Positions 38,339-64,000 of a stretch of 64,000 nucleotides of DNA are shown piece by piece. Within the stretch, counting starts at the first letter, position 1, and every line of letters begins with the position of its first letter. The notes under the pieces are model-generated. The model did no database searches, was not told the DNA's origin, and worked only from the letters and a program-made list of their open reading frames with translations. A program made the position numbers and the translations under genes. The DNA comes from an uncultured Verrucomicrobiae bacterium (GTDB lineage: Bacteria > Verrucomicrobiota > Verrucomicrobiia > Chthoniobacterales > UBA10450): contig CAVSDR010000003.1 in the NCBI GenBank assembly GCA_963726745.1, positions 736,001 through 800,000 on the forward strand, in the 5' to 3' direction.

Positions 38339-38439
38339 GGCTGCGAGCGTGGCACCTTCGCAGAGCCCGTGCAACTCTCTCCCGTGGACGCGCCGCAAAC
38401 TGTGTGACATCGTCCGCTTCGCCTCCGCAATTGAAATTC

Positions 38440-45700: not shown

Positions 45701-45854
45701 GACCGGCTACGAAGTCGAGGCCGCGCTTTTCTCCACTTCGTTAGGCCAATTGCTCCCCTACGACCAGTCCGCGCTGGCCGTCGAATGGACACGCCTCGAG
45801 AGTCTCCCGCCGGACGATCTCGCCGCCGAGGTCGCGCCGTCCGACGCATTTTGA
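42693..45854 (+). CDS. addA: AddA/UvrD-family helicase-nuclease with about five apparent indels (~42932, 43030, 43356, 44010, 44462)
   Basis: ASAGSGKT, LTF.N.AA.EM, GTIHAF, ILDEAQD, VGDFQQSIY, AKGSEW, LLYVALTRA and GVIDLL..DWKT, spread over successive frames. Confidence 0.85.
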
Positions 45855-45887: not shown

Positions 45888-47255
45888 ATGCGCTTTCGCT
45901 TCGCCCTGCTCGTTTTGCTGGCGGGCGCGGTTTGCCCGGCGCGGGCGCTGACGCTCGAGGAAGCGGTCGCCCGGGCCCGCGAGCACAACCCGGAGATCGT
46001 GATCGCGCGCAAGCAAGTGGAGGCGGCCCGCGGCGGCGTGCTCGAGGCGCGCGCAGGTTACCTGCCCACGGTCGCTTCCTCCGGCCTGCTGCGGAAGCGC
46101 ACCCAGCAGGAGCAGTCGCGCCTGCGGGACGATGATTACAACGCCTCCGTGCGCGTGATCCAGAGCATCTACACTTCCGGGGCAAATCGCGCCCGCTTGA
46201 AGATCGCGCGCCTGCTCCAGGAAAAGCGCGAGCTCGAGCTGGCGGCCACAACCGCGCGCGTGCTCCAGGATTTGCGCGTGGCTTACTACGAGTTGCTGCT
46301 CAATCGCGCGAAGATCGGCGTGCGCGAGCAATCCCTCCAGGTGATGCGCGACGAGCTGAAGTCGCAGGAAGAGCGTTTTCTCGCGGGCACCGTCGGCGAG
46401 TTGAACGTGCGCCGCGCCGAAGTCTCGCTGGCAAACGAGCAGCCGGAACTTTTCGAGTCGCGGACGCGTTTGCAAAATTCTTACCTGCGCGTGGGCGAAC
46501 TCATGGGCCTGAGCGTGCTGCCTAACGAGCGCCGCCCGCAGTTCGAGGTCGCGGGCGAATTGCGCTACCAGGCGGTTCGCCCGGAACTAAACGACTGCCT
46601 GCAAGCCGCCGCGGCGCGCCGCCCGGAGATGCGTGCGCGCCAGATCGATCTCGAGATCGAGGAGCAACAGTTGATCATCGACCGCGCGGAGTTGCGTCCG
46701 CGGCTGGAGGCGTTTTCCGGTTACGAAGTCTACAGCGAGCGCGATCCGCTGGTGGGGAACGAATTCAACCACGGCTGGGTCGTAGGCCTGAACGCCAGCT
46801 GGCATATCTTCGACGGCTACGCCACGCGCGGGCGGATGCAGGCTACGCGCGCGCGCCGCGACGCCGCGGCCGCTGCGCTCCAGGCGATGCAGACCTCGGT
46901 GGAAGCGGACGTGCGCAGCGCTTTCTTCGATCTCGAGCAAGCCAACCGCGTGCTCGAGTCGGAAACGCGCAATGTGCAGAACGCGACCGAGTCACTCGAG
47001 ATCGCGCGCGGTAATCTCGGCGCCGGCCTTGGGACGCAGCTCGAGGTGCTCCAGGCCGCGGCCGATATCACGCGCGTGCGGACCACGCGGCTGAGCGCGA
47101 TTTACCTGCACAATGCGGCCCTCGCCCGCCTGGCCCGCGCCTGTGCGCGCGAGCCGGACGAGTTGAAGGTGACGCACGCGCCAACGGCGGCGGAAGCGAA
47201 ACGCCAGGCGCGCGCTTTCGATCTCGCCCGACCGCCCTCGAACCTCCCGCGCTGA
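45888..47255 (+). CDS. TolC-family outer membrane factor
   Basis: Signal peptide, LTLEEAVARAREHNP, AYYELL and GLGTQLEVLQA. Confidence 0.92.
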   Translation: MRFRFALLVLLAGAVCPARALTLEEAVARAREHNPEIVIARKQVEAARGGVLEARAGYLPTVASSGLLRKRTQQEQSRLRDDDYNASVRVIQSIYTSGANRARLKIARLLQEKRELELAATTARVLQDLRVAYYELLLNRAKIGVREQSLQVMRDELKSQEERFLAGTVGELNVRRAEVSLANEQPELFESRTRLQNSYLRVGELMGLSVLPNERRPQFEVAGELRYQAVRPELNDCLQAAAARRPEMRARQIDLEIEEQQLIIDRAELRPRLEAFSGYEVYSERDPLVGNEFNHGWVVGLNASWHIFDGYATRGRMQATRARRDAAAAALQAMQTSVEADVRSAFFDLEQANRVLESETRNVQNATESLEIARGNLGAGLGTQLEVLQAAADITRVRTTRLSAIYLHNAALARLARACAREPDELKVTHAPTAAEAKRQARAFDLARPPSNLPR

Positions 47256-48565
47256 TGAAAGTGCTGGCTCTTTTCGCTGCGCTGATCGTTCCCCTAACGA
47301 GTGGTGCGATCACGCTCGACGCTGCTTTTGCGCGCATCCTCGAGCGCAACCCGCAGATCCAGCAGGCCAAGTTTCAACTCGAGCAGGCCGCTGGGCGGCG
47401 ACTCCTGTTGCGCGCGGTTGGCTACCCGGACGCACGCGTGATTGCCCCGGCGGGCGCGCAAGGCGGAAAGCGCGCGGGCGAAAGCTCGGTGCAGCCGTTC
47501 GCGTTTGGCCAGGGCGCTTTCACCCAGGCGGTTTTCGATCCGGCGGTGCCGGCCTCGTTTCGCCGCGGCGATCTCGAAGTGTTGATCGCGCAGCAGCGCT
47601 TAAACGTGGCCGTGCTCGAGCAACTCCATGCCGCGCGCCTCGCCTACTACACCGCCGTTTACCAGGATGCGCTCCGTGCTTTGGCCGAAGGCCAGCGGCA
47701 GCGCCTGCGGGAGAATGCGCGCACGCAGAGCGACCGTTTTCAGGCCGGGCAGAGCGACCGCCCCGCGATCGCAGTGGCCCGCTTGCTCGAGCAGGAAGTC
47801 GGGCCGCGGATCGAGGAATCGCGCCGCGCTTCCAGCGGAGCGCTGCTGCAACTGGCGCAAGCCATGGGCGCCGACGTGCGCGGCGATCTGCCCACGGCGG
47901 AGGGTTCGCTGGCGTTCGTTAGCCAGCAACTTGATGTCGCCGGGGAGACACGCGCGGCCCTGGCGCAGCGAGCGGATCTGCAGCTCGCCCGTCTGCTTGT
48001 GCGCGCGGGACGCGAAGACGAGCGGATCGCCGCGGCCGGCTACTTTCCGCAGATCGATGCGACCATTTCCGGCACCTACATTCCGGTCTCCGACATCCGC
48101 CGCGGCAGCGAAGGCTCGGCTCGGCGCTCGGATGACATTGTTTCCTCGGAGATGCGTTTTGGCGGCGCCTTCACCTGGCGGGTGATCGACAATGGCCGCG
48201 TGGCCGGCGCGGTCGCGCAGCGGCGTGCGTTGCGGGAAGCCAACGAAGCCGTGCTCGCGCGCCTCGAGGCCGAGGTGCCCCGCGCGCTCACGCGTTTGCG
48301 GAACAATTTGGACTCGTTAGCCGCGCGGCACGAGGCGCTGGCTAAATCCGGAATTGTCGCCGGCCAGACGGTGGCCGCGGTCCAGGCGCAGCTCGCCCAG
48401 GGTCTCTCCTCGCAACTGGAATACCGCACCGCGGAAAGCGATTTCCTCAAGGCCCAGGCCGGGCTCCTGACCGCGGCCTACGAGCAAAACCTCGCCCTGG
48501 CCGAGCGCGACCGGATCACCGGGCGCTACTTTCAATTTTCCCCGGCGCCGCGGAGCGTGCATTAG
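47255..48565 (+). CDS. second TolC-family outer membrane factor
   Basis: ITLDAAFARILERNPQI, AYY, YFPQI and GLSSQLEYRTA. Confidence 0.88.
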   Translation: MKVLALFAALIVPLTSGAITLDAAFARILERNPQIQQAKFQLEQAAGRRLLLRAVGYPDARVIAPAGAQGGKRAGESSVQPFAFGQGAFTQAVFDPAVPASFRRGDLEVLIAQQRLNVAVLEQLHAARLAYYTAVYQDALRALAEGQRQRLRENARTQSDRFQAGQSDRPAIAVARLLEQEVGPRIEESRRASSGALLQLAQAMGADVRGDLPTAEGSLAFVSQQLDVAGETRAALAQRADLQLARLLVRAGREDERIAAAGYFPQIDATISGTYIPVSDIRRGSEGSARRSDDIVSSEMRFGGAFTWRVIDNGRVAGAVAQRRALREANEAVLARLEAEVPRALTRLRNNLDSLAARHEALAKSGIVAGQTVAAVQAQLAQGLSSQLEYRTAESDFLKAQAGLLTAAYEQNLALAERDRITGRYFQFSPAPRSVH

Positions 48566-48574
48566 TTAGGGGAC

Positions 48575-49726
48575 TTGAAGTTTCCCTCTTCGAAAAAAAT
48601 TTGGTGGGCCGCCGGCGCCGGTTTGCTCCTGCTCTTCGCGCTCCTTTACTACGCCTTTCTGCCGGTCGCGGAAGTCGCCGTGGTGGCCCGCGGGACCGCG
48701 ATCTCGGCGGTCTACGGGACGGTGCGGATCGAGCCGACTTTCTTGATTCACGTGCGCGCGCAGAACGCCGGCTTCATCCGCCTGAGCGATGCTTTCTCCG
48801 CCGGCCGCGGCGCGATCGGGCGCACGGTCGAGAAAGGCGAACTCTTCGCGACCATCGCTGATGAAGCGACCGCGCGGCAATTGAAGCAAGCCCGCGGCGA
48901 TCTGCAGGCTGCGCGGGAGCGCGCGCAGTTGCCCCTGCCTTCCGCGGAGGCGCTCCGCGTGGCCGAGGACACGCTCGGGCGACTCGAGAAGCTCAGCTCC
49001 TTGAGCAACGTTCCCGCGGTCGAATACGAGAAGGCCAAGAGCGATGTCGCGCGTCTGCGCGGGCAGGTGGAAGCGGAGCGAATCGAGCGCGACCGCAACC
49101 TCGAGAACCTCGACGCCGCCGCGAAGAAGCTCGAGGCGCAGATGAAGAACTCCGAGATCCGCTCGCCCATGGACGGCTTGCTCACGGACGTGAAGACGAT
49201 CGATGGCGATCTCGTGAGCGAAGGGAACGAGCTCTTCGCGGTCGCCTCGCGGAAAAATTACGTGCGCGGCGAAGTGAATGAGGAAGACGTGGGCGAGGTG
49301 AAGCTCGGCATGCCCGCGAAGGTGCAGCTCTACGCTTTCCGCAATCAGCAATTTGATGCGCGCGTGACCGCGATCATGCCTGCGGCCGACCCGGACACGC
49401 AGCGCTACACGATTGTCCTCGATCTCGAGAAAGCGCCGGAAAACCTGCTCGCGGGCATGACTGGCGAGATGAACATCATCACCGGCCGCCATGAAAACGC
49501 GCTCCTCGTGCCGACACGCGCGCTCCTGGTCGATCACGTGCTCACGGTGCGCGCGGGCACGGTCCGCTCACGCGCGGTCCAGGTGGGCTATCGCACGCTC
49601 GATTACACCGAGGTGCTGCAAGGCCTGGAGGAAGGCGCGCACGTGATCATTAGCGACCAGGACAAGTTCCGCCCGGGCCAGCCGGCGCGGCAGCGCGAAG
49701 TCGAGGGCTTGAAGCCACCGGAGTAG
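48575..49726 (+). CDS. periplasmic adaptor (membrane fusion) protein
   Basis: N-terminal TM, coiled coil, IRSPMDG, VNEEDVGEVKLG and GMTGEMNI. Confidence 0.92.
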   Translation: MKFPSSKKIWWAAGAGLLLLFALLYYAFLPVAEVAVVARGTAISAVYGTVRIEPTFLIHVRAQNAGFIRLSDAFSAGRGAIGRTVEKGELFATIADEATARQLKQARGDLQAARERAQLPLPSAEALRVAEDTLGRLEKLSSLSNVPAVEYEKAKSDVARLRGQVEAERIERDRNLENLDAAAKKLEAQMKNSEIRSPMDGLLTDVKTIDGDLVSEGNELFAVASRKNYVRGEVNEEDVGEVKLGMPAKVQLYAFRNQQFDARVTAIMPAADPDTQRYTIVLDLEKAPENLLAGMTGEMNIITGRHENALLVPTRALLVDHVLTVRAGTVRSRAVQVGYRTLDYTEVLQGLEEGAHVIISDQDKFRPGQPARQREVEGLKPPE

Positions 49727-49727
49727 C

Positions 49728-50963
49728 GTGAAACGCCCGTCGCTTTACATCGGGCTGCGCTTTCTCACCCACCGCAAGCGGGCCTTCTTCCTCAGCCTCA
49801 GCGGCGTGGTCTTCGGCGTAGCCATCTTCATCACCACGCAGGCGCAGACCGCCGGCTTCCAGAAGAACTTCATCGATTCGAACCTCGGGAGTAATGGCGG
49901 CCTCGTCTTGTCGGCTAAAATCCAAGAGCCCACGAACGGTCTCTGGGTGGGCGCGAAAAATCTGAAGAGCTCGCGGCGGCGTTTCTCCGAGGGAATCAGC
50001 GATCCCGGCGGGATCATGCGCGTGAGCCGCGACTTTCCCGACGTCGCCGCGTGTGCCGCGGTCCTGCGTGGCTTGCTGAGCGCGCGCGCCGGTTTCGAGA
50101 CGGCCACGGTGAACCTCTTCGGAATTGATCCTTCGACTTTTGTCGAGGCGACCAATCTGCGTGCGCAAATCTTCGACGGGAGCTTTGACGATTTCCGCAA
50201 CAATTCGCGCGCGCTCATCGTCGGCTCGCGCCTCGCGGAAGCGCTCGGAGTGAAAGCGGGCGACAGCCTCCAGCTTCTTTCACCCGGTGGCGAATACCAG
50301 CGTTTCACGGTCGCGGCACTCGCGCGCAGCGGGATCGGTTCGGCTGATGCCAGCCGCATTTATTGCCACCGCAAGACCGCGCAGAAGTTGCTCCTTAAAC
50401 CCTACAGCGCCTCGATGATCGTCTACAAACTGCGCGACCCGGAACGCGCGCCTGCGCTGGCGCAACATTTCGAGATGCTCTTCCAGCAGCGCGCCGAGAG
50501 TTGGCAGGAGCGCGAGGAAGGGAATCTCCAACTCTTCCGCACCCTCCAAATCTCCGCGGCGATCACCGTCTCGCTGATTATTTTGCTGGCCGGTTTCGGC
50601 ATCTTCAATGTGCTCACCATGACCGTGATCTCGAAGCTCAAGGAGATCGCGATTCTGCGCTCGATCGGCTACCGCCGCGGCGACATCTCCGCGATTTTTC
50701 TCTGGCAAGGCGCGATGATCGCCGTGGGCGGCTCGCTCCTCGGCTGCGCTCTCGGCGCGCTCATGACCTGGGGCGTCTCGCACATCCCGATCAAAGTGCG
50801 CGGCCTGCTCTACGCGAATTACTTCCTCGTGAGCTGGGAATGGTCGCACTACTTCTGGGCCACCGTGCTCGCGATCATCGCGGTCTTTATCGCCAGCTTC
50901 GTGCCCGCGCGCCGGGCGGGCTTGCTCTCGCCGGTGGCCACGCTCCGCGGCTCTGGCGGCTAA
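49728..50963 (+). CDS. ABC transporter permease (LolE/MacB/FtsX type)
   Basis: GVVFGVA, AGFGIFNVLTMTV..K.KEIAILRSIG and PARRAG..SPV. Confidence 0.92.
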   Translation: MKRPSLYIGLRFLTHRKRAFFLSLSGVVFGVAIFITTQAQTAGFQKNFIDSNLGSNGGLVLSAKIQEPTNGLWVGAKNLKSSRRRFSEGISDPGGIMRVSRDFPDVAACAAVLRGLLSARAGFETATVNLFGIDPSTFVEATNLRAQIFDGSFDDFRNNSRALIVGSRLAEALGVKAGDSLQLLSPGGEYQRFTVAALARSGIGSADASRIYCHRKTAQKLLLKPYSASMIVYKLRDPERAPALAQHFEMLFQQRAESWQEREEGNLQLFRTLQISAAITVSLIILLAGFGIFNVLTMTVISKLKEIAILRSIGYRRGDISAIFLWQGAMIAVGGSLLGCALGALMTWGVSHIPIKVRGLLYANYFLVSWEWSHYFWATVLAIIAVFIASFVPARRAGLLSPVATLRGSGG

Positions 50964-50971
50964 AGCGGAAC

Positions 50972-52076
50972 TCAAAAACGCAGCGGCCGCACGAAAAGCA
51001 CCCAGCCCGCGCGCAGCAGGTGCACCACCGCGGAGACCGCTTCCCACCAGGCGATCACGACGAACGCCGTTCCCGGCGCGCCGAAGAGCAGCCCGACGGT
51101 CAGGATCCAGATGTAAATGTTCCGGCGACCGCCGAACAATCGGATCTTCCGGTCGAGCGGCGTGAGTTCATCGATCAAGCGCCCGTAGCGCCGGATCACG
51201 CTCAGCTTCGCGATGCCATCCAGCCCTTCGCTCACGAGAAGCAAGAGGAGATACCACCAGGCCGCCGGCAAAATCTCTGCGCGCCAAAGGTGAAAGGCCA
51301 GCGCCACCGCCCAGGCGAGCTCGTAGAAAGTATCGAACCAATGCTCGAGCTTCCCGGCTTCCGAGGTCTCCACTTTGACCCGCGCCTGCTTGCCATCGAG
51401 CCCGTCGAGCACGCCCACTGCGAGCGCACACAAAGTGCCGGCTAATAACTGGCCGGTCGCGAAGAGCAGCGCCGCGGCCCAGGCGACGACGTTGCAGAGC
51501 GCGGTCAGTTGATTCGGGGTGATCGACGTCCGGCAAAGCCGCGCGACCAGCGCGGTCTCGATCGGTCCGTGCACGATCGCGGGTAAATCCTGCGAGCCTT
51601 TCTGCGCGGCGTCGAGGATCCGCGCCTCGTCCGCGCGGGTCGGCTGCGGGACCCAAAGCAGCGGCAGGTCGCGGCGCATGTGCAGTGAATAGGTCGGCAA
51701 CTCCGCGATCTCGAGCGTGCGCGGATCGTCCCCGCTGATGAACGCGCCGGTTGGCTGCCCATCTTTGACGAGCACGCACGGCTCCGTCTGCGCGAGGAGT
51801 AATCGGAGCAGCCGCGCATCCCAAAGCGCATCGCCGGGCAGGACCAGCATCCGCTCGTTAGGCGGCGGCAAAGCCTCCCGCACGGTGACCGCGAGCTCGC
51901 TCCGGTGCGCCGATGGCCGGAGCGCCGCGGCCGCCATCTCGCTGTCTCTTTTCGTGATCACGGTCGCCGTGCGCACGCCCTCGCGCGGGAGCATCCGCAG
52001 GAGGCGCTCGAGCACCGTGATCCCACAGAGCTGCGGTGAGCGCGCCCGGCTTTTCCGCCAAAATGACTACCTGCAT
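50972..52076 (-). CDS. CDP-alcohol phosphotransferase with degenerate N-terminal NTP-transferase-like region; frameshift near 52034
   Basis: ITPNQLT and LDGLDGKQAR...G motif. MQVVILAEKPGALT + QLCGITVLERLLR is restored by removing one base. Confidence 0.85.
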
Positions 52077-52128
52077 GGGTCGATCAAAATTGCTTCGCGC
52101 GCCTTCCGGTGTTACGCCAGTAACCCCG

Positions 52129-53091
52129 ATGCCGACCGCCGAACTCAGTGCGCCGCCCGTGCGGCCAGCCGCCGCGGAGGAAGTGAATGTGCCCGGGATG
52201 TCGTTTCGGCTGCGATACAGCCCGTTGCTAGCACAGATGGTGATCGTGCGCCGCTGCAATCTCGCCTGCGCCTACTGCACCGAGTTCGATAAAACCAGCG
52301 AGCCGGTCCCCTACGCCACGCTCGAGGCGCAGCTCGTGCGCCTGCGGAATCTCGGCACCTTCGGGATGTCGCTCACCGGCGGTGAACCGACGCTGCATCC
52401 CGATCTGCCGCGGCTCGTCCGGCGTTGCCGCGAGCTCGGATTTTTCCGCACCGGGATGATCACCAACGGCTTCTTCCTGAAGCAGGAGTTGATCGAGAAA
52501 CTGAACGATGCCGGCCTGCAGGAGATGCAAATCTCGATCGATGGCGTGAAGGGCAACGACACGACCCAGAAGGTGCTGGATAACTTGCGCAAGCGGCTCA
52601 TCGCCCTGCGCGACCATGCCAAATTCAACGTCACCGTCAGCGGCGTGATCGGCGCCTGCCCGCCGGAGGAAGCCGAGGAAGTGGTGCAATTTGCCACCGA
52701 GATGGGCTTCACTCCACGCGTCCTCCTGGTGCACGACAGCCATGGGCAATCGAAGCTGAGCGAACGTGAGCTGCAGGTTTACGAGCGCATCGTGAAGCAA
52801 CTCCCGAAGAGCTGGATGGATTTCTCCGGTTACCGGAAGCGCCTGGTGAAGGATGGCGTCGCGCCCTTCAAATGCCGCAGTGGCGCGCGCTATCTCTACG
52901 TGGATGAATTCGGCCGGGTCAACTGGTGCGCGCAAACCCGCGACGTCTGGTCGAAGCCGCTCCTGCAATACACCCAGGCCGATCTGCGGGAGCAATTCCA
53001 CACCCCGAAGTCGTGCAATCCCACCTGCACCATCGGCTGCTCCCGCTCCGCCAGCCAGATCGACAAGTGGCGCGCACAGGCGTTGCCCTAA
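52129..53091 (+). CDS. radical SAM protein with C-terminal auxiliary Cys cluster
   Basis: CNLACAYC, TGGEP, ITNG and QISIDG. C-terminal CRSG..C..CNPTCTIGC. Confidence 0.92.
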   Translation: MPTAELSAPPVRPAAAEEVNVPGMSFRLRYSPLLAQMVIVRRCNLACAYCTEFDKTSEPVPYATLEAQLVRLRNLGTFGMSLTGGEPTLHPDLPRLVRRCRELGFFRTGMITNGFFLKQELIEKLNDAGLQEMQISIDGVKGNDTTQKVLDNLRKRLIALRDHAKFNVTVSGVIGACPPEEAEEVVQFATEMGFTPRVLLVHDSHGQSKLSERELQVYERIVKQLPKSWMDFSGYRKRLVKDGVAPFKCRSGARYLYVDEFGRVNWCAQTRDVWSKPLLQYTQADLREQFHTPKSCNPTCTIGCSRSASQIDKWRAQALP

Positions 53092-53109
53092 CGAGTCCAG
53101 CCGCCGCCC

Positions 53110-53826
53110 ATGCCTGAGGACATCTGGCTGAGCTGCCGCGGGCTCGAGCGTTACCTCGGCGAGGAAGACTCGCGGGTGCACGCGCTCCGCGGCGTCTCGT
53201 TAGACCTCGAACCGGGGAGCGTGCACGCGATCGTCGGCCCCTCTGGCTGCGGCAAGAGCACGCTGCTTTACATCCTCGGCCTGCTTGACCGGCCGGATGC
53301 CGGCACGCTCACGATCGATCACCAGCTCGTCTCCGGCCTGCCAGACGACGCCCTGAGCACGAAGCGCAACGAGCTCCTCGGCTTCATCTTTCAATTCCAT
53401 TTCCTCCTCGAAGATTTCACCGCCGAGGAAAACATCATGATCCCGATGCGCCGCCTCGGCCGCGCGAGCGAGGAGGAAATGCGCGAGCGCGCCGGCGTGC
53501 TCCTCGACGCCGTCGGCTTGAAAGCCAAACGCGCGCGGCCCAGCCGGCATCTTTCCGGCGGCGAACAGCAGCGCGTCGCGATCGCGCGCGCCTTGGCCAA
53601 CGATCCGAAAGTGATTTTAGCCGACGAGCCGACGGGAAATTTAGACAGCGCCAACTCGCAGCGCGCCTTCGAGCTCCTGCAAAAGATCGTGCAGGAAGGC
53701 AACAAGGCGCTCCTGCTCGTGACTCACAATCCGGCGATCGCGGAGCTCTGCGATTGGATCCACGAAATGCAGGACGGCGTGATCATCGGCAGCCATCCGC
53801 GCGGCGGCGCCACCCGGCCGACATGA
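53110..53826 (+). CDS. ABC transporter ATP-binding protein (LolD/MacB type)
   Basis: GPSGCGKST, GFIFQFHFLL, LSGGEQQRVAIARAL and ILADEPTGNLD. Confidence 0.95.
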   Translation: MPEDIWLSCRGLERYLGEEDSRVHALRGVSLDLEPGSVHAIVGPSGCGKSTLLYILGLLDRPDAGTLTIDHQLVSGLPDDALSTKRNELLGFIFQFHFLLEDFTAEENIMIPMRRLGRASEEEMRERAGVLLDAVGLKAKRARPSRHLSGGEQQRVAIARALANDPKVILADEPTGNLDSANSQRAFELLQKIVQEGNKALLLVTHNPAIAELCDWIHEMQDGVIIGSHPRGGATRPT

Positions 53827-56188: not shown

Positions 56189-56270
56189 CGCGTACCTCGT
56201 TGCATCCCGCCGTTCGCATGATTTCCTCTGGCCATCGGCGCGCGCCAAGATGCCGCGCAAAATCGTTTTC

Positions 56271-57074
56271 ATGAAGAAAATCTTTCTCACCGGCGCCAGC
56301 TCCGGCATCGGGCGCGCCACTGCGGAGCTGCTCTGCGCGCAAGGCCACGAAGTCTGGGGGACTTCGCGCGAGCCGGCGCGGCTTCCGGCGCTGGCCCGCC
56401 TCCATCCGGTGCGTCTCGATTTAACCGAGCCCGCTTCGATCGCGGACGCGTGGGAGCGCGCGCGCGCGGAAGCCGGCGGCTTCGAGGTGGTGATCAACAA
56501 CGCCGGCGCCGGGCACTTCGATCCCGCGGCCACGCTTTCCGCGGAAACGCTCGCGCGGCAATTCCAGCTCCTGCTCTTCGGGCAGATCGAAATTAGCCAG
56601 CAAGCTCTGCGCGCCTGGCGCACCCAGCCGCGCGGTTTGTTGATCAATGTGACCTCGCTCGCGGCGCGCCTCCCGATGCCTTTCAGCGCAGCCTACAATG
56701 CGGCCAAAGCCGCCATGTCCGCCTACACCACCACGCTCCAGCTCGAGCTGGCCGGCTCCTCCGTGCGCGTGGTCGACCTGCAACCGGGCGACATCTCCAC
56801 GGATTTTAACGACCACCTCACGCGCGCTCCAGCGCTGGACGCGCAAGACGCGGCCGCGATGCAACGGGCCTGGGAAGTGATCCAGCGGACGATGCAAAAA
56901 GCGCCGCCGCCAGAGTTGGTCGCGCGGGAAATTGCGCGCCTTCTGGAACGGGCGCATCCGCCGGCACGCGTGACCGTGGGCGACCCTTTCCAGCGCACCT
57001 TCGCGCCCGCGATCTTTGCGCTCCTGCCTCCCACCTGGCGCATCTGGGCGCTGCGCCGGCACTACAAACTTTGA
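56271..57074 (+). CDS. SDR family oxidoreductase
   Basis: TGASSGIG, INNAG and YNAAK. Confidence 0.93.
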   Translation: MKKIFLTGASSGIGRATAELLCAQGHEVWGTSREPARLPALARLHPVRLDLTEPASIADAWERARAEAGGFEVVINNAGAGHFDPAATLSAETLARQFQLLLFGQIEISQQALRAWRTQPRGLLINVTSLAARLPMPFSAAYNAAKAAMSAYTTTLQLELAGSSVRVVDLQPGDISTDFNDHLTRAPALDAQDAAAMQRAWEVIQRTMQKAPPPELVAREIARLLERAHPPARVTVGDPFQRTFAPAIFALLPPTWRIWALRRHYKL

Positions 57075-57814
57075 GCTCGCCCGCACTCGCACCGACCGAC
57101 GCCGTCATCCTCATGGCCGGCGCCGGGTCGCGCCTGGGCCCGGCCAGCGGAGCCCTGGCCAAGCCGCTCGTCCCCATCGCCGGCCGGCCGTTGATCGCGC
57201 ACACCCTCGATCCTCTCGCCGCCCTCGGCGTGCGCACGCTGCACATCATCACCGGCGCGAATGGCTCGCAGCTCGCCCAGGAAATCGCGCGTCTGCTTCC
57301 GGAAAAGATGGCGCTGAACGCGATCGCGAATCCCGCGTGGGAAAAGCAGAACGGTGTCTCCGTGCTCTGCGCGCAGGGCGCGGTGCGGGCGCCATTTTTC
57401 CTCGCGATGGGCGATCACCTTTTCGACGCGGCCGTTTTCCATCGCCTCCTCCAAGGCGCCGAGCCGGCGCAGCTCAACCTTGCGATCGATCGCAAGGTCG
57501 CCGCCGTCTTCGACCTGGACGACGCCATGAAGGTGGTCACGCGCGACGAGCAGGTGGTCGAAATCGGCAAAACGCTGCCTGTTTATGATGCGATCGACAC
57601 CGGCCTTTTTCTTTGCCCCGATGAGTTGTTCGACTACCTGCGACGCGCGCAACGCGCGGGCGATTGCAGCCTGGCCGATGGCGTGCGCCTGATGGCGGCC
57701 GACCGGAAAGTGCGCGCGGTCGACATCGGTGCCGCCTGGTGGCAGGACGTGGACACGCCCGAGATGTATGCACAGGCCGAGGCGCACTTCCGCGTGCGTC
57801 AGAGCGCGCGCTGA
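57071..57814 (+). CDS. NTP transferase, inositol-1-phosphate cytidylyltransferase (IPCT)/LicC-like
   Basis: ILMAGAGSRL..KPL, NG.SVL, MGDH, DDAMKV..IGK.L..YDAIDTG and WQDVDTPE. Confidence 0.85.
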   Translation: MSSPALAPTDAVILMAGAGSRLGPASGALAKPLVPIAGRPLIAHTLDPLAALGVRTLHIITGANGSQLAQEIARLLPEKMALNAIANPAWEKQNGVSVLCAQGAVRAPFFLAMGDHLFDAAVFHRLLQGAEPAQLNLAIDRKVAAVFDLDDAMKVVTRDEQVVEIGKTLPVYDAIDTGLFLCPDELFDYLRRAQRAGDCSLADGVRLMAADRKVRAVDIGAAWWQDVDTPEMYAQAEAHFRVRQSAR

Positions 57815-58940
57815 AAGATCCGGTAGGTCTTGTAACGCTGCGCGCCGATCGCCTCGAGGAAGCGATTGATCAGCCGGTTGTTCTCCAGGGTCATGCTCAA
57901 CTCGCCGACCCACCCGCGCTTCACCATTCCCTCCTCGATCACCCGCAGCACGAGCGTTTCCGCGATCCCGAAGCGGCGAAACTTCGGCACCACGCCGAGC
58001 GCGACCAGGCGTCCGCGCTTCAGCCGGCTCTTGTGCCAGAGCAATTTAGCCAGCGGGATGGGCAGGCCATAACTCGTTAGGCGGCCGTTGATTTTTTGAA
58101 AGGCGGCGTTGATGTCGGGCACCGCGAGGATGAATCCGGCCGGCTCGCCGTTCACCTCCGCGACCAGCACCAGCTCCGGCATCGCCAGCGGCTTCAGCTC
58201 CTTCACCAGGTGATCGAACTCCGCTTCGGTGAAGGGGACGAAGCCCCAGTTCTTCTGCCAGGCCTGGTTGTAAACCGCGCGCAGCCCGGCGGCCTCGTCT
58301 TTGATCCGCGAAGATCGATCGGGCGAATCGTGACCTCGCTCTTGTCGCCGAAGCGCGTTGCGATCTTGCGCAGGCGCACCGCTGCTTCCGCGGGCTCGGC
58401 AAACCACCAGGCATACCAATCGATCGCCTTCTCGAAACCCGCGCGCTCGATCAGACCGCGGTAATACGGCGGATTGTGCGGCGTGAGCAGCGTCGGCGGA
58501 AACTCAAAGCCATCGATCAGGAGCGCGCAGACATAATTCGTCGAGTAATCGATCGGCCCCATGATCTCGCGGCGGCCGCGCGCGCGCAGCCAATCGCTCG
58601 CCGCCGCGAAGAGCGCGTCGGCTACCGCCTGGTCATCGATCGACTCAAACAAGCCGAAGCAGCCGACATTCGACCCGTGCTCGGCGTTGTAGTTCGGGTC
58701 GTCGCTCGCCATGATCCGGCCGACGATTTGGCCGCCGCGCCGCGCGAGAAAGAGCTCCGCAGCGCCATGCTCGTAGAAGGGATGCTTCGCGCGATCGAGA
58801 AAATCGCGCCGCTCCAGGATCAACGGCGGGACCCACGCCGGATCGCCGCGGTAGATCTGCCAAGGGAACTCGATGAAGACGTCGCGCTCGGCCTTGGACC
58901 GGACCGGAGTGATTTCGATCTGCGCCACGTCAGCGCCCAT
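57799..58940 (-). CDS. GNAT-fold N-acyltransferase resembling bacterial ceramide synthase (bCerS/YghO family); frameshift near 58308
   Basis: FIEFPWQIYRGDPAWVPPL, HPF, VGRI, FGLFESIDD, GP...STN, HNPPYY, AWQKNWGFVP, PDIN and ELSMTLENN. Confidence 0.8.
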
Positions 58941-59020
58941 CTCGCTGGGCGACGGCACCGGCGCAAGGCGGAAATGCCTTTGCAGCCGCGCGCAAAACTG
59001 CGTAGTAGCACGGCCTTCCC

Positions 59021-59891
59021 ATGCCGCCGCAGGCCTCATCGACCAACGCGCCCGGGCTCGCTTTCCAAGCCCGCGAGATCGAGGAACTGGCGGACGTTTA
59101 TTTCTTCCGGCCGCTCGGCATCCTGATCGCGCGCCCCGCGGCGGCGCTCGGCTTGCACGCCGACACAGGTGACGTGGGCGAGCATGGTGATCGGGATCGC
59201 CGGCGGCACGTTGCTCTACCGGCCGCAGACTTACGGCCTGGCGGCTTTCGTTCTCTTGATCGTCTACAGCATCTTCGACTCGGCCGACGGCCAGCTCGCG
59301 CGCCTAACGAATCAAGCGAGCGAGTTTGGCCGCGTGCTCGACGGCGCGATCGGCTACGTGGTTTACACCGCGGTCTACCTCGCGCTCACCCTGGGGCTGC
59401 TGGAGCGCGGCGCGCCGCCGGCTATCGTGGTGGTGATGTTGCTGGCTGTTTTGTCGAACATCGCCCAGGCGCAGATGTACGAATACCACCGGCACCAATA
59501 CGTCATGGTCGTGGTCAAAGGCCGCGTCCTCCTGGACGACCCGGCGAAGGTCCACTCGCCGCTGGTCGCCTGGATTTACCAGCGCTATCTCGCGATGCAG
59601 CGCGCGCTCAATGGCCTCCATGTCGAGGTCGAGCGGACGCTCGCGGCGCGTGCGGAAAATGGCGTCGTCCCGGAGCGCGACCGCCTGCGCTATCGCCAGC
59701 ATTTCTACTGGCCGGTGCGCGGCTGGAATTTGCTCGGCGATAACACCCGCTTCTATGCCATCGGGGTGCTCGCGTGGTGCGGTCGGCTCGATCTCTTTTT
59801 CCTCGTCCTCCTTTTACCGCTTAACCTCGCGCTGGCCGTCCTCTGGTTTTGGCAACGCCGGGCCGACCGCGCTTTTCTCCGCGAGCCATGA
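59021..59891 (+). CDS. CDP-alcohol phosphatidyltransferase; frameshift near 59156
   Basis: EE.AD.YFFRPLG, TPTQVT and DSADGQLARLT..SEFGRVLDG. Confidence 0.88.
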
Positions 59892-60559
59892 TCCGGACGA
59901 TCTTCTTCGATCTTGGCGGCACGCTTGACGGCAGCGGCGGCCACTGGCTGGAGCGTTTTCTCCGGCTCTACCGCGCGGCTGGCTTGGAACTCCCACGCGA
60001 AACTATCCGCGGCGCCTTCGACTTTGCGGAACGCCGCGCGGCTACAGACGACGAGATCGCGTCGGCTAATTTTGCGCAGATGGTCGCGCTCCATGTGCGC
60101 TGGCAACTGGAACATCTCGGGTTGCCTAACGAATCGCTCGCGCAAACCCTGGTCGCAGGCTTTGTCGAGCCGGTGCGCCCGGCCGTCGCGGAAAACGTGC
60201 GCCTCCTGCGCGAGCTGCACACGCGCGGCTTCACCCTCGGCGTGATCTCGAATGGCTGCGGCAACGTCGCCGCGCTTTGCGAAGATTTTGGCTACGCGCC
60301 CTTTCTCGCGCTCACGCTCGACTCGCGCCGGCTCGGCCTTTCCAAACCCGATCCCGCGATCTACCGCCACGCCGTCGCGCAGCTCGGTGGAGAAACAGGC
60401 AGCATGCTCATGGTCGGCGATTCTCTCGAGCGCGACATCTTGCCGGCTAAATCCATCGGCCTGCAAACCGCGTGGCTCGACGACTCTGCCATGCCGAGCG
60501 ATCCCGCGGTCGACTTCCGCCTGCGCACACTCGCGGAATTGCCGGCGCTTTTACGATGA
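59888..60559 (+). CDS. HAD-family hydrolase
   Basis: FFDLGGTLD, ISN, KPDP and VGDSLERDI. Confidence 0.92.
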   Translation: MIRTIFFDLGGTLDGSGGHWLERFLRLYRAAGLELPRETIRGAFDFAERRAATDDEIASANFAQMVALHVRWQLEHLGLPNESLAQTLVAGFVEPVRPAVAENVRLLRELHTRGFTLGVISNGCGNVAALCEDFGYAPFLALTLDSRRLGLSKPDPAIYRHAVAQLGGETGSMLMVGDSLERDILPAKSIGLQTAWLDDSAMPSDPAVDFRLRTLAELPALLR

Positions 60560-62031
60560 AAGCCGGCATCCTGGCCGCGGGTCGCGGCGAACGTTTGCTC
60601 CGCGCCGCGCCGCTGAAGCCGCTGGCTAAAGTCGGTGGCCGCGCCTTGATCGAGCATGTTCTGCACTCGTTCGCCGACGCAGGCGCAATCGAGGTGACGA
60701 TCATCATCAACGCGGACTCGAGCGCGGTGCGCGACTTTGTCGAAGGGCGGAACTGGCCGTTCGCTCTCCGCTGGATCGTCGAGAGCACGCCGACTTCGAT
60801 GCACAGTTTCCTGCGGCTGGTGGAAACGCTCGCGGCCGGCGGGGACGACGGGCCGTTTCTCCTTTCGACCGTCGATACCGTGGCCGGGCCGCAAACCTAC
60901 CGACGCTTCTTTGCCGCCGCGCAGGCGAGTGCGGCGGACGTGACCCTGGCCTTGACCGCGCCGGGCGATGACGAGAAGCCGCTGCTTGTCCGGCTGGAGG
61001 ACGCGCGCGTCAGCGCGATCGGAAAAGAGGCAGCGGGTTCGGCGCACGCCACCGCGGGAATTTACGCCGTCCGCGCGAGCGTCCTGCGCGAGGCCACCGC
61101 GAGCGCGGGGCTCGGGGCGCTCCGGGAATTTCTTGGGCGACTGCACACGCGCGGCTACCGGCTCGAAGGGATTCCCATCGAACCGACGATCGACGTCGAC
61201 CGCCCGGCCGACCTCGAGACGGCGGCGCGATTTTTTAGCCGGCGACTTGTGGGAATTTATCGCGAGCCGGAATACTCGCCCGGGCGCCACCTCTCGAACG
61301 ACGCCATCCTGCTCGACCAGATCGCGGCGCGCCTGGAGAACGTGGAGCTGCGGCAAATCGAGGAGCTGCCGGAGCAACCGGCGGCGGCGCTGATTTTTTC
61401 CATGTGCCAGGGGCGCGCCGCGCTCGAGCGGCTCGCGGAATGGGAACGCGCCGGCGCGCGGATCGTCAATCGCCCGGAAGCCGCGCGCAACACCCACCGC
61501 GATCGCCTGCCCGGGCTCCTGCGCGCGGCCGGGCTTCCTTTCCCGCGGACCGAGCTGGTCGAGACGCGGGGCCAGCACTCGTTAGGGGAAATCGGCGCCG
61601 GCCTTTGGCTGAAGCGCGGCGACGTCCACGCCTCGGTCGCAGCCGATGTGCAATGGCTCGACTCCGCGGAGCGGGTGGAGGCCGGGCTGGAGGACTTCGC
61701 GCGGCGCGGGATCGAGCGCGCGGTTTTGCAGGAACACCGCGCGGGCGATGAGGTGAAATTCTACGGCGTCGGCCCGGGCGAATTCTTCCATTGGTTCTAC
61801 TCGCGGGAAGCGGCCGGTCATCCGCTGGACGAGAGGGCGCTGGCGGAGTTGGCCGCGCGCGCTGCGACGGTCTGCGGGCTGGAGATTTTTGGCGGCGACA
61901 TGATAATCGGGCCGGACGGCGAACTGACCTTGATCGACCTGAACGACTGGCCTTCCTTTGCCCCCTGCCGCGAAGCAGCGAGCGCGGCGATTGCCCAACA
62001 CCTCCGGAGACGCACCCATCATGTTGCTTGA
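60556..62031 (+). CDS. NTP transferase fused to an ATP-grasp-like domain
   Basis: ILAAGRGERL..KPL, STPTSMHSF, STVDT, DDEKP and DVDRP. Then WLKRGD, VLQEH..GDEVKFYGV and GLEIFGGD..IDLNDWP. Confidence 0.82.
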   Translation: MKAGILAAGRGERLLRAAPLKPLAKVGGRALIEHVLHSFADAGAIEVTIIINADSSAVRDFVEGRNWPFALRWIVESTPTSMHSFLRLVETLAAGGDDGPFLLSTVDTVAGPQTYRRFFAAAQASAADVTLALTAPGDDEKPLLVRLEDARVSAIGKEAAGSAHATAGIYAVRASVLREATASAGLGALREFLGRLHTRGYRLEGIPIEPTIDVDRPADLETAARFFSRRLVGIYREPEYSPGRHLSNDAILLDQIAARLENVELRQIEELPEQPAAALIFSMCQGRAALERLAEWERAGARIVNRPEAARNTHRDRLPGLLRAAGLPFPRTELVETRGQHSLGEIGAGLWLKRGDVHASVAADVQWLDSAERVEAGLEDFARRGIERAVLQEHRAGDEVKFYGVGPGEFFHWFYSREAAGHPLDERALAELAARAATVCGLEIFGGDMIIGPDGELTLIDLNDWPSFAPCREAASAAIAQHLRRRTHHVA

Positions 62032-63328
62032 AGAAAAATCGTCCACGCAGAGCCGCGCGCTTTTTGCCGAGGAGCAAAAGCACATCGCGCCGGGCATCCA
62101 GACGATCGCGCTCCTCTCCGAACTAACGATCGCGCACGGCCGCGGAAGCACCCTCACCGATGTCGATGGCCGGACGTATCTCGACTTCAACGCCGGCGTT
62201 TCCGTGGCCAGTCTCGGGCATGCGCATCCGCGCTATGTCGCGGCGATGACCGCGCAACTGCAGGCGGTCACAGTAGGGAGTTTCACTTCGCCAGCGCGCG
62301 CGGAATTAGTGCGGCTGATCGCCGAGCTCACGCCCGGGGAGCTCACGCGCACGCAGTTTTTCAGCGGTGGCGCGGAGGCGGTGGAAGCAGCTTTCCGGCT
62401 GGCGCGTTCTTACACCAAGCGCACCGAGATCATCGGTTTCACCCACGCCTTCCACGGCAAAACCGCGGGCGTCCTGCCGATCTCCGACGTCGACTGGAAA
62501 CACGACGTCGGTCCACTGGCGCCGCATCACCCGATCGCGCCTTTCCCCGACCCGACGCGCTTCGACGGCACCCCGGAGGAATGCGCGCAGCACTCGTTAG
62601 GGGAATTGCGCCGCGTCATCGAAGAACAGGCCGGCGGGCGGCCGGCGGCGATCATCATGGAGCCGATCCAGGGGACTGCGGGCAACATCGTGCCGCCGCC
62701 GGGATTCTTTGCCGCGGTCCGCGCGATGGCCACGGAGTATGGCGCGCTTTTGATTGCCGACGAGATGATCACTGGCTTCGGGCGCACCGGACGGATGTTT
62801 GCCAGCGAATGGGACGGCGTGATCCCGGACATCCTGACCGTGGGCAAAGGGATGGCCGCGGGCTACCCGGTCAGCGCAGTCATCTCGACCGACGAGATCA
62901 TGGCCGCGAAGCCGTTCTCGCTCCCGAGCGCCTCTTCTTCGAGCTATGGTGGAAATCCACTCGCGGCCGCGGCGGTGTTGGTCACCTTGCAGACGATCGT
63001 GGAGGAAGACCTGACCGCGCACGGCGCGAAAGTCGGCGCCATTTTGCAGGATGGCTTGCGCGCGCTGGCGGAGAAACACGGCACGATCGCGCAGGTGCGC
63101 GGACGCGGCTTGCTCGTCGGTTTTGACCTGGTCGAGCAAAATAGCCAGCAAGCTCTCTGGCCGAAGCCGCGCTGCATCGAGTTCTTTCAGCGTTGCCTGG
63201 CCGAGGGACTAATCATGATGAGCTACACGCCGCGGGTGCGGGTGCATCCGCCGCTGATCCTGCGCGTGGAGGAAGCGGAGCGCGGGCTCGCGATCATGGA
63301 TCGCGTGCTCGGAGAGATGGGCGCCTGA
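62021..63328 (+). CDS. class-III PLP aminotransferase
   Basis: DVDGRTYLDF, SGGAEAVE, FHGKT, EPIQGTAG, LIADEMITGFGRTG, PDILTVGKG and YGGNP. Confidence 0.94.
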   Translation: MLLEEKSSTQSRALFAEEQKHIAPGIQTIALLSELTIAHGRGSTLTDVDGRTYLDFNAGVSVASLGHAHPRYVAAMTAQLQAVTVGSFTSPARAELVRLIAELTPGELTRTQFFSGGAEAVEAAFRLARSYTKRTEIIGFTHAFHGKTAGVLPISDVDWKHDVGPLAPHHPIAPFPDPTRFDGTPEECAQHSLGELRRVIEEQAGGRPAAIIMEPIQGTAGNIVPPPGFFAAVRAMATEYGALLIADEMITGFGRTGRMFASEWDGVIPDILTVGKGMAAGYPVSAVISTDEIMAAKPFSLPSASSSSYGGNPLAAAAVLVTLQTIVEEDLTAHGAKVGAILQDGLRALAEKHGTIAQVRGRGLLVGFDLVEQNSQQALWPKPRCIEFFQRCLAEGLIMMSYTPRVRVHPPLILRVEEAERGLAIMDRVLGEMGA

Positions 63329-64000
63329 TGCTGCGCGGCGCGCTGGTTGGTTTCGGAAACGTCGCAGAGTTCGGTCACTGGCCCGGCTACCGGGAGAACG
63401 ATGCGGTTGAACTCGTGGCGGTGGTCGACGCCTCGCCCGCGCGTCGGGCGCGCGCGCAAGAGCACTCGTTAGCCGCCTACGCCTCGCTCGCGGAGATCCC
63501 GGAGGGCACGATCGATTTCGTCGATATCTGCACGCCGCCGGCGCAACATGCGCGGGCCGATGCTGGAGGCGCTTGCGCGCGGCTGGCACGTGCTTTGTGA
63601 AAAGCCGTTCCTGCTCGACGCGGCCGTGCTCGAGGAAGTGCGCGCGCGCCGGGGCGAGCTCGCGGTGATGCCGGTGCACAATTGGAAATACGCGCCCGTC
63701 ATCCGCGCGGCCAAGCAACGCCTGCCGGAACTGGGCCCGCTCCGGCGCGTGGAAATCCAGACCCTGCGGATGGAAGACGCCGCGGCCGCCGATTCCTCCA
63801 ACTGGCGGCGCGACCCGGCGATCGCCGGCGGCGGCATCCTGCTCGATCACGGCTGGCATTCGCTCTACCTCGCGCAACATTTCTTCGAGGCGGTGCCGCG
63901 GGAAATTAGCGCGCAACTTCATCGCCCGGCACCGGGCGCGGCGGAGGACGAGGCCATCGTGGAACTTGAGTTTGCCGAGGGAAGCGCGCGGATCGAGCTC
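63328..64000 (+). CDS. Gfo/Idh/MocA oxidoreductase, frameshift near 63553, 3'-truncated by window edge
   Basis: LVGFGNVA and DFVDICTPP, then HVLCEKP and WR.D...GGG.LLDHG.H in the next frame. Confidence 0.88.

Follow-up and report, generated by a model that had tools for sequence, protein, structure and literature searches.

A family-wide locus of Chthoniobacterales predicted to build and export an inositol-phosphoceramide-type lipid

Bacterial phosphosphingolipid loci, CDP-inositol, and genes resembling serine palmitoyltransferase (Spt) in Verrucomicrobiota metagenome-assembled genomes (MAGs) are already known, the last from 22 MAGs in print (PMC11334938). The locus CC_1152-CC_1168 of Caulobacter crescentus builds phospho-head groups on ceramide (PMC11324152). 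For phosphoinositol dihydroceramide (PI-DHC) in Bacteroides (Phocaeicola) vulgatus and Prevotella, Heaver et al. proposed an alternative inositol lipid gene set of unconfirmed function (PMC9246714; bioRxiv 10.1101/2021.04.26.441525), and carriers of this Bacteroidota cluster make PI-DHC (PMC9246714). By the account of PMC11087976, no sphingolipid flippase or transporter had been identified at the time. We analyzed a 64,000-nucleotide stretch (the window, G000:C3:736001-800000) of an uncultured bacterium, G000 (3.4 Mb, 7 contigs, 94.7% complete); the source labels of its close homologues read Chthoniobacterales or Verrucomicrobiota. From position 45888 onward it carries a locus that, by the same logic as in Caulobacter, probably builds and exports an outer-membrane lipid of the inositol-phosphoceramide type. 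The family of G000, presumably the GTDB family holding Candidatus Udaeobacter, comprises at least 30 genera.

All gene types named for 45888-64000 by an initial annotation made from the sequence alone are present, as judged by Pfam and NCBIfam matches (Table 1), and its overall reading is supported, with a head-group chemistry predicted from gene families. The region that it had taken as one unit is actually composed of a family-wide core and an accessory five-gene module. In all ten same-genus regions fetched, the core has the order addAB-TolC-TolC-MFP-permease-ATPase-SDR-NTP1-GNAT-CDP-transferase-oxoamine synthase, where MFP is the membrane fusion protein, SDR the short-chain dehydrogenase/reductase, NTP1 the first nucleotidyltransferase (NTP-transferase) and GNAT the N-acyltransferase. 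A second set comprised 17 regions of 7-30 kb from 16 other genera, picked for an oxoamine synthase on long contigs. It retains the synthase and the GNAT throughout (17 each), NTP-transferase 1 and the SDR in 16 regions each, the permease in 12, TolC and the flippase in 11 each, and the radical SAM gene in 7; the locus glycosyltransferase is found in 6. The synthase adjoins the GNAT in every region of both sets. Since the core order recurs in 10/10 same-genus regions and the synthase-GNAT pair in 17/17 others, the cluster is confirmed as real, family-wide and beyond chance. Variable inserts among the relatives comprise PIG-V-like and PMT-like GT-C glycosyltransferases, GT4, GT2, an MsbA-like ABC gene and a fatty-acid hydroxylase, the last lying inside the locus of genome G014 and of 5 of the 17 other-genus regions.

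The genes for Spt and inositol-phosphate synthase (ino1), which the initial annotation had placed outside the window, are indeed found there, ino1 on the same contig (Table 1) and an Spt-like α-oxoamine synthase gene lying 290 bp beyond the window end, convergent with the Gfo dehydrogenase gene. The solved structure closest to the synthase is the Sphingobacterium Spt (265 bits), followed by Kbl (233), cysteate acyltransferase (203) and BioF (201); a separate Kbl paralog is present in G000. The motifs DEAHS and GTFSK are as in Spt, SHLS, GTFSKA and FRAC are also present, and both the lysine that holds pyridoxal phosphate (PLP) and the C-terminal arginine are retained; we take the His, Asp and Lys of these motifs to bind PLP and the Arg to bind the substrate carboxylate. 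Orthologues at E ≤ 1e-120 occur in 168/200 family genomes (unpublished G160 included) and in 29/30 genera, and at E ≤ 1e-100 in 12/12 family genomes and 0/108 other genomes of the order.

Several features of the synthase weigh against a canonical Spt. It carries GSP(T/M)LSG for GSRxxNG (Asn to Ser) and HLS for HAS, changes that are invariant across the family. Its scores of 304, 319 and 253 bits lie below the cut-offs of all three NCBIfam Spt models (NF047599/600/603; 500, 640 and 670, respectively), which the Dyadobacter (721) and Escherichia coli (600) controls clear, and the BioF model scores it higher (344 bits). It also falls outside the canonical Spt clade (clade SH-aLRT 97-99; trees of 29 and 23 rows), and joining it to this clade gives p 0.03 in the approximately unbiased test, in which branches were long, rows few, the group named after the first tree and six rows dropped for the second. 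The trees place the enzyme with Spt rather than with Kbl, BioF or HemA, with a support of 89 only, its neighbours being a second bCerS-linked verrucomicrobial group (bCerS, bacterial ceramide synthase) and a Bacteroides plasmid enzyme. The spt gene that the initial annotation proposed to look for is therefore present only in a loose sense, as an adjacent Spt-like gene that lies below the cut-offs and outside the canonical clade. From its genomic context we infer that the synthase functions like Spt while standing outside the Spt family, and serine is only a presumed substrate because of this position.

The second group consists of bCerS-adjacent oxoamine synthases of other Verrucomicrobiota (loci L156-L158 and L160; genomes G323, G485, G395 and G368), likewise outside the canonical clade, and the plasmid enzyme is a lone oxoamine synthase on a conjugative plasmid of Bacteroides ovatus (L047:3851-5086), the top blastp reference match to the locus enzyme (39%).

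We consider it quite unlikely that the synthase uses alanine, glycine or another non-serine amino acid, that the C1 hydroxyl is consequently absent or altered, and that the CDP-inositol enzymes serve diacylglycerol, giving a phosphatidylinositol-type lipid in a separate co-regulated branch. The position outside the Spt clade and the family-invariant motif changes could be consistent with this, as could the initial proposal of the B. vulgatus-type route via phosphatidylinositol diacylglycerol (PI-DAG) (PMC9246714). However, the PLP lysine, DEAHS and the C-terminal arginine are retained, the synthase, CDP-transferase and bCerS genes are tightly linked and form one operon in most relatives, the other bCerS-linked verrucomicrobial enzymes share the position outside the clade, and no cysteate synthase scores above cut-off. 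On this last ground a sulfonolipid route was rejected.

Because locus genes of G000 are frameshifted, the family tests were made with the intact copies of the affected genes from genome G013. The GNAT, called bCerS-like in the initial annotation, belongs to the bCerS family: the G013 copy is 33-40% identical, over 99% coverage (E 7e-50 to 3e-62), to the genes that take the place of cerS in the sphingolipid clusters of E. coli (yghO), Sphingomonas parapaucimobilis and Roseomonas, and the split G000 gene itself matches E. coli YghO at E 5e-60. It passes the published bCerS threshold (E ≤ 1e-30, at least 50% coverage; PMC11334938), and N-acylation of a long-chain base is its predicted activity. 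No solved structure matched the family by sequence. The gene contexts of 4 of 45 plasmid-database records were examined: in three, from the E. coli, S. parapaucimobilis and Roseomonas clusters above, the GNAT homologue occupies the cerS position of an aasR-cerR-acpR-spt-lptFG-type cluster, and in the fourth, from Rubrobacter, it stands between an Spt-like gene and a reductase gene. Matches to bCerS are scarce in the phylum (20/300 genomes). On the Rubrobacter radiotolerans plasmid (L045:10698-14065), the Spt-like, bCerS-family and reductase genes are consecutive, and a gene of the LTA-synthase family comes next.

The cerR gene, also proposed for a genome search by the initial annotation, did not appear: three queries found no CerR homologue at E ≤ 1e-30 in this 94.7% complete genome (best E 9e-14), and no AcpR or ceramide-kinase matches were found in it. 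The locus SDR is the top of six KdsR (NF049977) matches in G000, with 153 bits against 113 for the next; it does not reach the cut-off of 400, and a generic SDR model scores level with KdsR, which tells against a specific assignment. The SDR is nevertheless a candidate to stand in for CerR as the 3-keto base reductase. It is probably cytosolic, as its Rossmann motif lies right at the start; CerR is periplasmic (PMC11087976). G000 has the genes lpxB and lpxC for lipid A, so that the proposed lipid would supplement lipopolysaccharide and not substitute for it.

Inositol could be supplied by Ino1, the gene for which, as sought by the initial annotation, was found in G000 and in 180/200 family genomes, 22/24 same-genus genomes (unpublished G001 and G008 included) and 0/16 other-family genomes; among the 17 other-genus regions, 8 have it adjoining the locus on the TolC side. 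NTP-transferase 1 has as its closest solved relatives the archaeal and Thermotoga inositol-1-phosphate cytidylyltransferases (IPCT; E 2e-20) and scores far below the cut-off of NF041135. Its best matches make it an IPCT-like candidate for CDP-inositol synthesis, and in this respect the CDP-inositol route of the initial annotation stands, whereas NTP-transferase 2, nearest to MurU and GlmU, is not IPCT-like by sequence. No strong AUR1-type synthase is found in G000 (PAP2_3, ~31 bits), which makes a CDP-inositol route likelier than one via phosphatidylinositol phosphate diacylglycerol (PIP-DAG).

Two CDP-alcohol phosphotransferases could act on the product. CDP-transferase 2 shares its family with the transferase found in the NTP-ATP-grasp-CDP-HAD cluster of Bacteroidota (31%, E 3e-21) and takes the place of the core transferase in most module carriers examined. 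CDP-transferase 1 is accessory and travels with the radical SAM gene; it resembles, at 31% over 271 aa (E 4e-16), the transferase that adjoins a ceramide-kinase-like gene within the sphingolipid cluster of Roseomonas and is a candidate for adding a second phospho-unit. The radical SAM enzyme matches no specific family above cut-off (BtrN only at E 0.003). In most relatives the core has a second transferase, whose top match is the DIPPS half of NF041135 (79 bits). This last match is what could suggest a soluble compatible solute of the di-inositol-phosphate type, made by the IPCT-like enzyme, the DIPPS-like transferase and the HAD phosphatase with the lipid genes as mere neighbours. Such a product is very improbable: the DIPPS-like transferase has no match in G000 while the IPCT-like gene is retained, and across the 27 regions these genes alternate with those for bCerS, hydroxylase, flippase and exporter. 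In the loci of genomes G047 and G048 (L059 and L061), as many as four CDP-alcohol transferases and two radical SAM genes are found together with an MsbA-like ABC transporter and a PMT-like GT-C, a surplus that suggests several head-group variants.

In the proposed core pathway, with each substrate and product predicted from the families described above, the oxoamine synthase would condense an acyl thioester with an amino acid, in all likelihood serine, and so yield a 3-keto long-chain base, which the cytosolic SDR would reduce in CerR's stead before the bCerS-family GNAT attaches the N-acyl chain. Ino1 would provide inositol-1-phosphate for conversion to CDP-inositol by the IPCT-like enzyme, and a CDP-alcohol transferase would place phospho-inositol on the C1 hydroxyl of the ceramide. 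The head could then be extended with a phospho-unit by the second CDP-transferase and with sugars by the variable glycosyltransferases, and the flippase and the MacAB-TolC-like system would carry the lipid outward.

The ABC-MFP-TolC exporter noticed initially is present, with two TolC-like genes rather than one. Its permease was not assigned to the LolCDE lipoprotein exporter: a better LolC/E candidate lies at C6:546546-547826, and the MFP and two TolC genes adjoin the locus permease. A family search found a single LptF/LptG pair in G000, which together with the better LolC/E match elsewhere fits a dedicated exporter, and linkage points to a lipid as its putative cargo. Even less probable than the solute would be a surface product of the sugar-type genes, flippase and exporter, either a polysaccharide or a polymer akin to teichoic acid, bearing cyclitol phosphate, or an exporter that is an unrelated efflux pump. 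The polysaccharide-type flippase and the variation in GT2, GT4 and GT-C genes from relative to relative would fit this, and the exporter, whose lipid cargo is putative, is not contained in the sequence fetched for 5 or 6 of the 17 other-genus regions. On the other hand, the locus scans revealed no polymerase or LicD/TagF-type transferase, the CDP-alcohol transferases are integral membrane proteins, which points to a lipid product, and the lone LptF/LptG pair of G000 contrasts with Caulobacter-type loci, which carry a second.

The accessory module is composed of HAD, NTP-transferase, ATP-grasp, aminotransferase and dehydrogenase genes. Its ATP-grasp gene is found in 35/200 family genomes, with 22/28 in one genus and 7/34 in the genus of G000 (unpublished G001 included), and in the five other same-genus carriers inspected it sits between the GNAT and synthase genes. 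NTP-transferase 2 and the ATP-grasp domain form a single open reading frame (ORF) in G000 (60556-62031) and separate genes in G013, G011, G047 and G049; the fusion occurs in 9 of 12 long homologues scanned, with one triple fusion with HAD and one with a CDP-transferase. A GTDB scan yielded at least 596 ATP-grasp matches, and neighbours were counted within 8 kb in the best 80 loci, 11 of which belong to the family of G000, judged by title and gene order. In these 80 loci, NTP-transferase 2 is found in 73, a CDP-transferase in 71, HAD beside the ATP-grasp gene in 68, an aminotransferase after it in 56, Gfo in 49, LPG-synthase TM in 43, ino1 in 37 and bCerS in 16, half of the latter (8) outside the family of G000. 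By their titles the loci come from Bacteroidota, Ignavibacteria, Acidobacteriota, Gemmatimonadota, Rokubacteria/Methylomirabilota, Elusimicrobiota, Nitrospirota, Myxococcales, deltaproteobacteria and one betaproteobacterium. The 24 loci of the 80 that lack the aminotransferase are mostly from Bacteroidota, with the order NTP-ATP-grasp-CDP-(LPG)-HAD, and in Dyadobacter and Parapedobacter this aminotransferase-free module sits behind spt-cerS-cerR. The ino1 gene is near 13 of these 24 loci and near 24 of the 56 with an aminotransferase. In an Ignavibacteria locus (L083:5434-7952), an MlaE-ATPase-MlaD set lies between the NTP-transferase and ATP-grasp genes within the module operon, and a contig titled Bifidobacterium (L076), probably misbinned, carries the complete module together with an Spt of proteobacterial type, bCerS and a reductase.

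The ATP-grasp domain was modelled from a 122-row alignment with a pLDDT of 95.6 (36 for the single-sequence model). K180, Y182, D239 and N241 (G013 numbering) are invariant in 122/122 rows, and the resulting K-x-Y and D-x-N motifs align with KFY and DLN of AtITPK4; the ligase PsnB has RVY and ELN. In ZmITPK1, Lys198 and Tyr200 bind inositol phosphate (PMC7614388), and ITPK1 accepts inositol monophosphates (PMC6900528). These ITPK-type residues, the place between the phosphatase and the nucleotidyltransferase, and the presence of the domain in loci where no amine would be made favour a cyclitol kinase, an assignment that we hold as somewhat likelier than its alternatives together. The overall fold weighs against it. 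The closest folds are the LysX/ArgX/RimK ligases (Z 22.6-21.7), RimK/LysX superimposing with Z 22.6 and a root mean square deviation of 2.8 on 247 aligned residues versus Z 18.9, 3.3 and 246 for ITPK1. Foldseek does not separate ligases from ITPK1, and the Pfam matches are weak and mixed (PF05770 in 7/122 rows at E ≤ 0.05 and in 51% of one Atlas fusion cluster, RimK in 9 rows, ATPgrasp_ST in 14). Against the proposed pathway more broadly, NTP-transferase 2, the aminotransferase and the dehydrogenase are without a specific characterised relative: the aminotransferase matches no family above cut-off and is nearest to GABA/putrescine transaminases and racemases, and the IolG and Gfo6 models (inositol versus xylose) tie on the dehydrogenase at ~67 bits, far below cut-off.

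In the proposed module pathway, the HAD phosphatase would release inositol from inositol phosphate, the Gfo dehydrogenase and the aminotransferase would convert it via an inosose to an inosamine, the ATP-grasp kinase would phosphorylate the inosamine, and NTP-transferase 2 would activate the phosphate to NDP-inosamine, from which CDP-transferase 2 would attach inosamine phosphate to give an amino-inositol phosphoceramide. That the module yields such an amino-inositol variant is a tentative reading, a little short of an even chance. It is rather unlikely, yet a serious alternative, that the core acts as proposed while the module differs, with the ATP-grasp enzyme as an amide ligase acylating the new amine, or with the dehydrogenase and aminotransferase acting on a non-inositol polyol, for example a pentitol converted to an aminopentanetetrol-type head. 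The ligase-first fold ranking, the GABA/putrescine-like aminotransferase, the tie between xylose and inositol dehydrogenase models and the MurU/GlmU-like NTP-transferase 2 fit such a module. On the other side, the 24 aminotransferase-free loci keep the ATP-grasp, NTP, CDP and HAD genes and would offer no amine for ligation, the fusions of putative kinase and nucleotidyltransferase suggest consecutive steps, and the domain has the ITPK-type K and D instead of the ligase-type R and E. In addition, ino1 lies beside 24 of the 56 aminotransferase loci.

Taken to its full extent, the amino-inositol reading would have the whole Chthoniobacterales family make glycosyl-inositol-phosphoceramides resembling those of plants or fungi through its own route, one that combines a non-canonical oxoamine synthase, a cytosolic SDR, CDP-inositol and MacAB-TolC-like export. 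About one-sixth of its members, and members of at least eight other phyla, would add the module, whose ATP-grasp kinase would be the first ITPK-like one in bacteria, would feed an amino-inositol phosphate head and would be the missing step of the Bacteroidota inositol sphingolipid route. So broad a claim is doubtful. For a large family without cultured members, the analysis thus makes a prediction of one defined lipid class that can be measured. If true, this would be a bacterial source of inositol phosphoceramides, which are usually taken as fungal or plant markers, and a synthase outside the Spt clade that makes sphingoid bases would broaden Spt-based surveys. The role of the ATP-grasp enzyme in the Bacteroidota alternative cluster and sphingolipid export by a MacAB-TolC-type system both become testable.

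The frame changes in five locus genes of the G000 assembly, relative to intact relatives, are a further point against a functional pathway. They affect the flippase (~53891, 54408, 54477 and 54579), the GNAT (~58308-58323), CDP-transferase 2, the Gfo dehydrogenase and the N-terminus of CDP-transferase 1 (Table 1). Elsewhere in the genome, 12/63 orthologous genes have a frame change (16 changes in 85.6 kb). Counted like-for-like, the locus has 4 changes in 19.7 kb (P 0.50 versus background); a finer count, made by hand against an undercounted background, gives 8 changes (P ~0.04). A frame change also splits the isoleucyl-tRNA synthetase gene ileS (window 5707-8407, minus strand) in two, which in an essential gene speaks for indels of the assembly, and rpoC is intact, which indicates that the frame changes spare some long genes. 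The locus frameshifts are thus probably assembly errors, and pseudogenisation is disfavoured by the background-like rate and the split ileS; the flippase may be decaying.

Table 1. Features of the locus, with window coordinates unless the contig is given.
Feature	Coordinates	Strand	Evidence and remarks
TolC-family outer-membrane channel 1	45888..47255	+	PF02321 176 bits; 64-76% identity among relatives, always locus-end position
TolC-family outer-membrane channel 2, paralog	47255..48565	+	PF02321 82 bits; conserved among relatives
MacA-like periplasmic adaptor (MFP)	48575..49726	+	TIGR01730 134 bits, cut-off 94.9 exceeded
MacB/LolC-E-type ABC permease	49728..50963	+	PF12704 + PF02687; TIGR02212 163 bits
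CDP-alcohol phosphotransferase 1, soluble N-terminal extension	50972..52076	-	PF01066; frameshift near 52040
Radical SAM enzyme, candidate head-group modifier	52129..53091	+	PF04055 67 bits
LolD/MacB-type ABC ATPase	53110..53826	+	TIGR02211 227 bits, below cut-off 307.75
Polysaccharide-type (MOP) flippase, four frame changes	53823..55304	+	PF01943 in intact relative; frame map
GT-A glycosyltransferase, N-terminal hydrophobic anchor, accessory	55301..56188	-	PF00535 weak, E 4e-4; Atlas GT2 clusters, score 0.99
Classical SDR, candidate 3-keto long-chain-base reductase	56271..57074	+	NF049977 KdsR 153 bits, full length
NTP-transferase 1, IPCT-like	57071..57814	+	PDB 2xme/4mnd IPCT, E 2e-20; NF041135 N-half 124.6 bits
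bCerS-family N-acyltransferase (GNAT)	57799..58940	-	77-82% identity to intact G013 copy; frameshift near 58315
CDP-alcohol phosphotransferase 2, opens accessory operon	59021..59891	+	PF01066; frameshift near 59156
HAD-IA phosphatase, motif I = DxG	59888..60559	+	PF00702 61 bits
NTP-transferase 2 fused to ATP-grasp domain (from ~61240)	60556..62031	+	candidate nucleotidyltransferase + cyclitol kinase
Class-III PLP aminotransferase, candidate inosose aminotransferase	62021..63328	+	PF00202 335 bits
Gfo/Idh/MocA dehydrogenase, runs on to G000:C3:800297	63328..64000	+	PF01408/PF22725; frameshift near 63559
Spt-like α-oxoamine synthase, past window end	G000:C3:800290-801618	-	convergent with Gfo gene
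ino1	G000:C3:147228		650 kb from locus

The GC content is even along the locus region (64-68%). Directly 5' of the exporter lies an AddB/AddA-type nuclease-helicase gene pair (window 39709-45854, plus strand), linked to it in 9/10 same-genus regions, with the addA of G000 spread over several frames, and upstream of this pair a DsbA-like thioredoxin gene is followed by a VKOR gene (38404-39638, plus strand). Window positions 2719-36254 hold a series of about ten large, probably secreted proteins (660-1240 aa), among them M12B reprolysin-like and M4 thermolysin-like peptidases, BNR and PD40 propellers and a dockerin-like tail; several have no Pfam match at 1e-6. Past the oxoamine synthase (L001:2782-9248, i.e. 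G000:C3:801782-808248) are found DUF1989, YqcI/YcgG, a GT2/GT21-like glycosyltransferase, a split GH1, a GT4 and a Kdo transferase. The GT21-like gene, a weak match (E 1e-5) to the family of ceramide glucosyltransferases, does not adjoin the synthase in the compared relatives.

In searches of the open full-text literature, we did not find the present gene combination, a divergent family-wide synthase with an SDR for CerR, the kinase assignment, the amination pair or a lipid of the amino-inositol type predicted here; no paper retrieved there joins inosamine, lipid, CDP-alcohol and aminotransferase, and of those listed for Chthoniobacter and sphingolipids none treats this topic by title or abstract start. 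Among the described kinases, ITPK1 and ITPK4 (PMC6900528, PMC7614388, PMC8024741), reported in these sources from eukaryotes and Asgard archaea, share the ATP-grasp fold and the K-x-Y and D-x-N motifs with the module enzyme, at an identity of only 15-17%. The KDSR of Bacteroides thetaiotaomicron, BT_0972, is a classical SDR that reduces 3-ketosphinganine (PMC9278070), as predicted for the locus SDR, but it is unclustered with spt while the locus SDR is clustered. The BT_1522-1526 PI-DHC route leads to the product type predicted here, inositol phosphoceramide; G000 holds no strong AUR1-type synthase. NTP-transferase 1 and the second transferase of the relatives resemble IPCT and DIPPS of the di-myo-inositol-phosphate pathway of hyperthermophiles, but the locus genes are separate and far below the NF041135 cut-off, and the predicted acceptor is a lipid.

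With the Bacteroidota alternative cluster (PMC9246714) the locus shares an NTP-transferase, a CDP-alcohol transferase and HAD in one operon (G000 59021-62031), an order with homologous counterparts in L119, L127, L143 and L144. The Bacteroidota loci found here read ino1-NTP-ATP-grasp-CDP-(LPG-synthase TM)-HAD. ATP-grasp is unnamed in the main texts of PMC9246714 and bioRxiv 10.1101/2021.04.26.441525 (0 occurrences); the gene order in the Phocaeicola locus L119 suggests that it is encoded by the B. vulgatus gene left without a name between those for NTP and CDP. The Bacteroidota cluster has ino1 in its direct vicinity, whereas that of G000 is remote, and G000 adds the aminotransferase, the dehydrogenase and a second, IPCT-like transferase, is without the LPG-synthase gene and has the set embedded in a ceramide locus. 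The Caulobacter locus CC_1152-CC_1168 (PMC11324152) likewise clusters genes for an oxoamine synthase and an acyltransferase of the CerS family with two nucleotidyltransferase genes, one each for a CDP-alcohol transferase, a phosphoesterase and a flippase, and genes for transport. In contrast to it, G000 is without CerR, AcpR and ceramide-kinase matches and without a second LptF/G pair; it has instead the SDR, the MacAB-TolC-like exporter, a synthase outside the Spt clade and a head predicted to be inositol or amino-inositol rather than phosphoglycerate.

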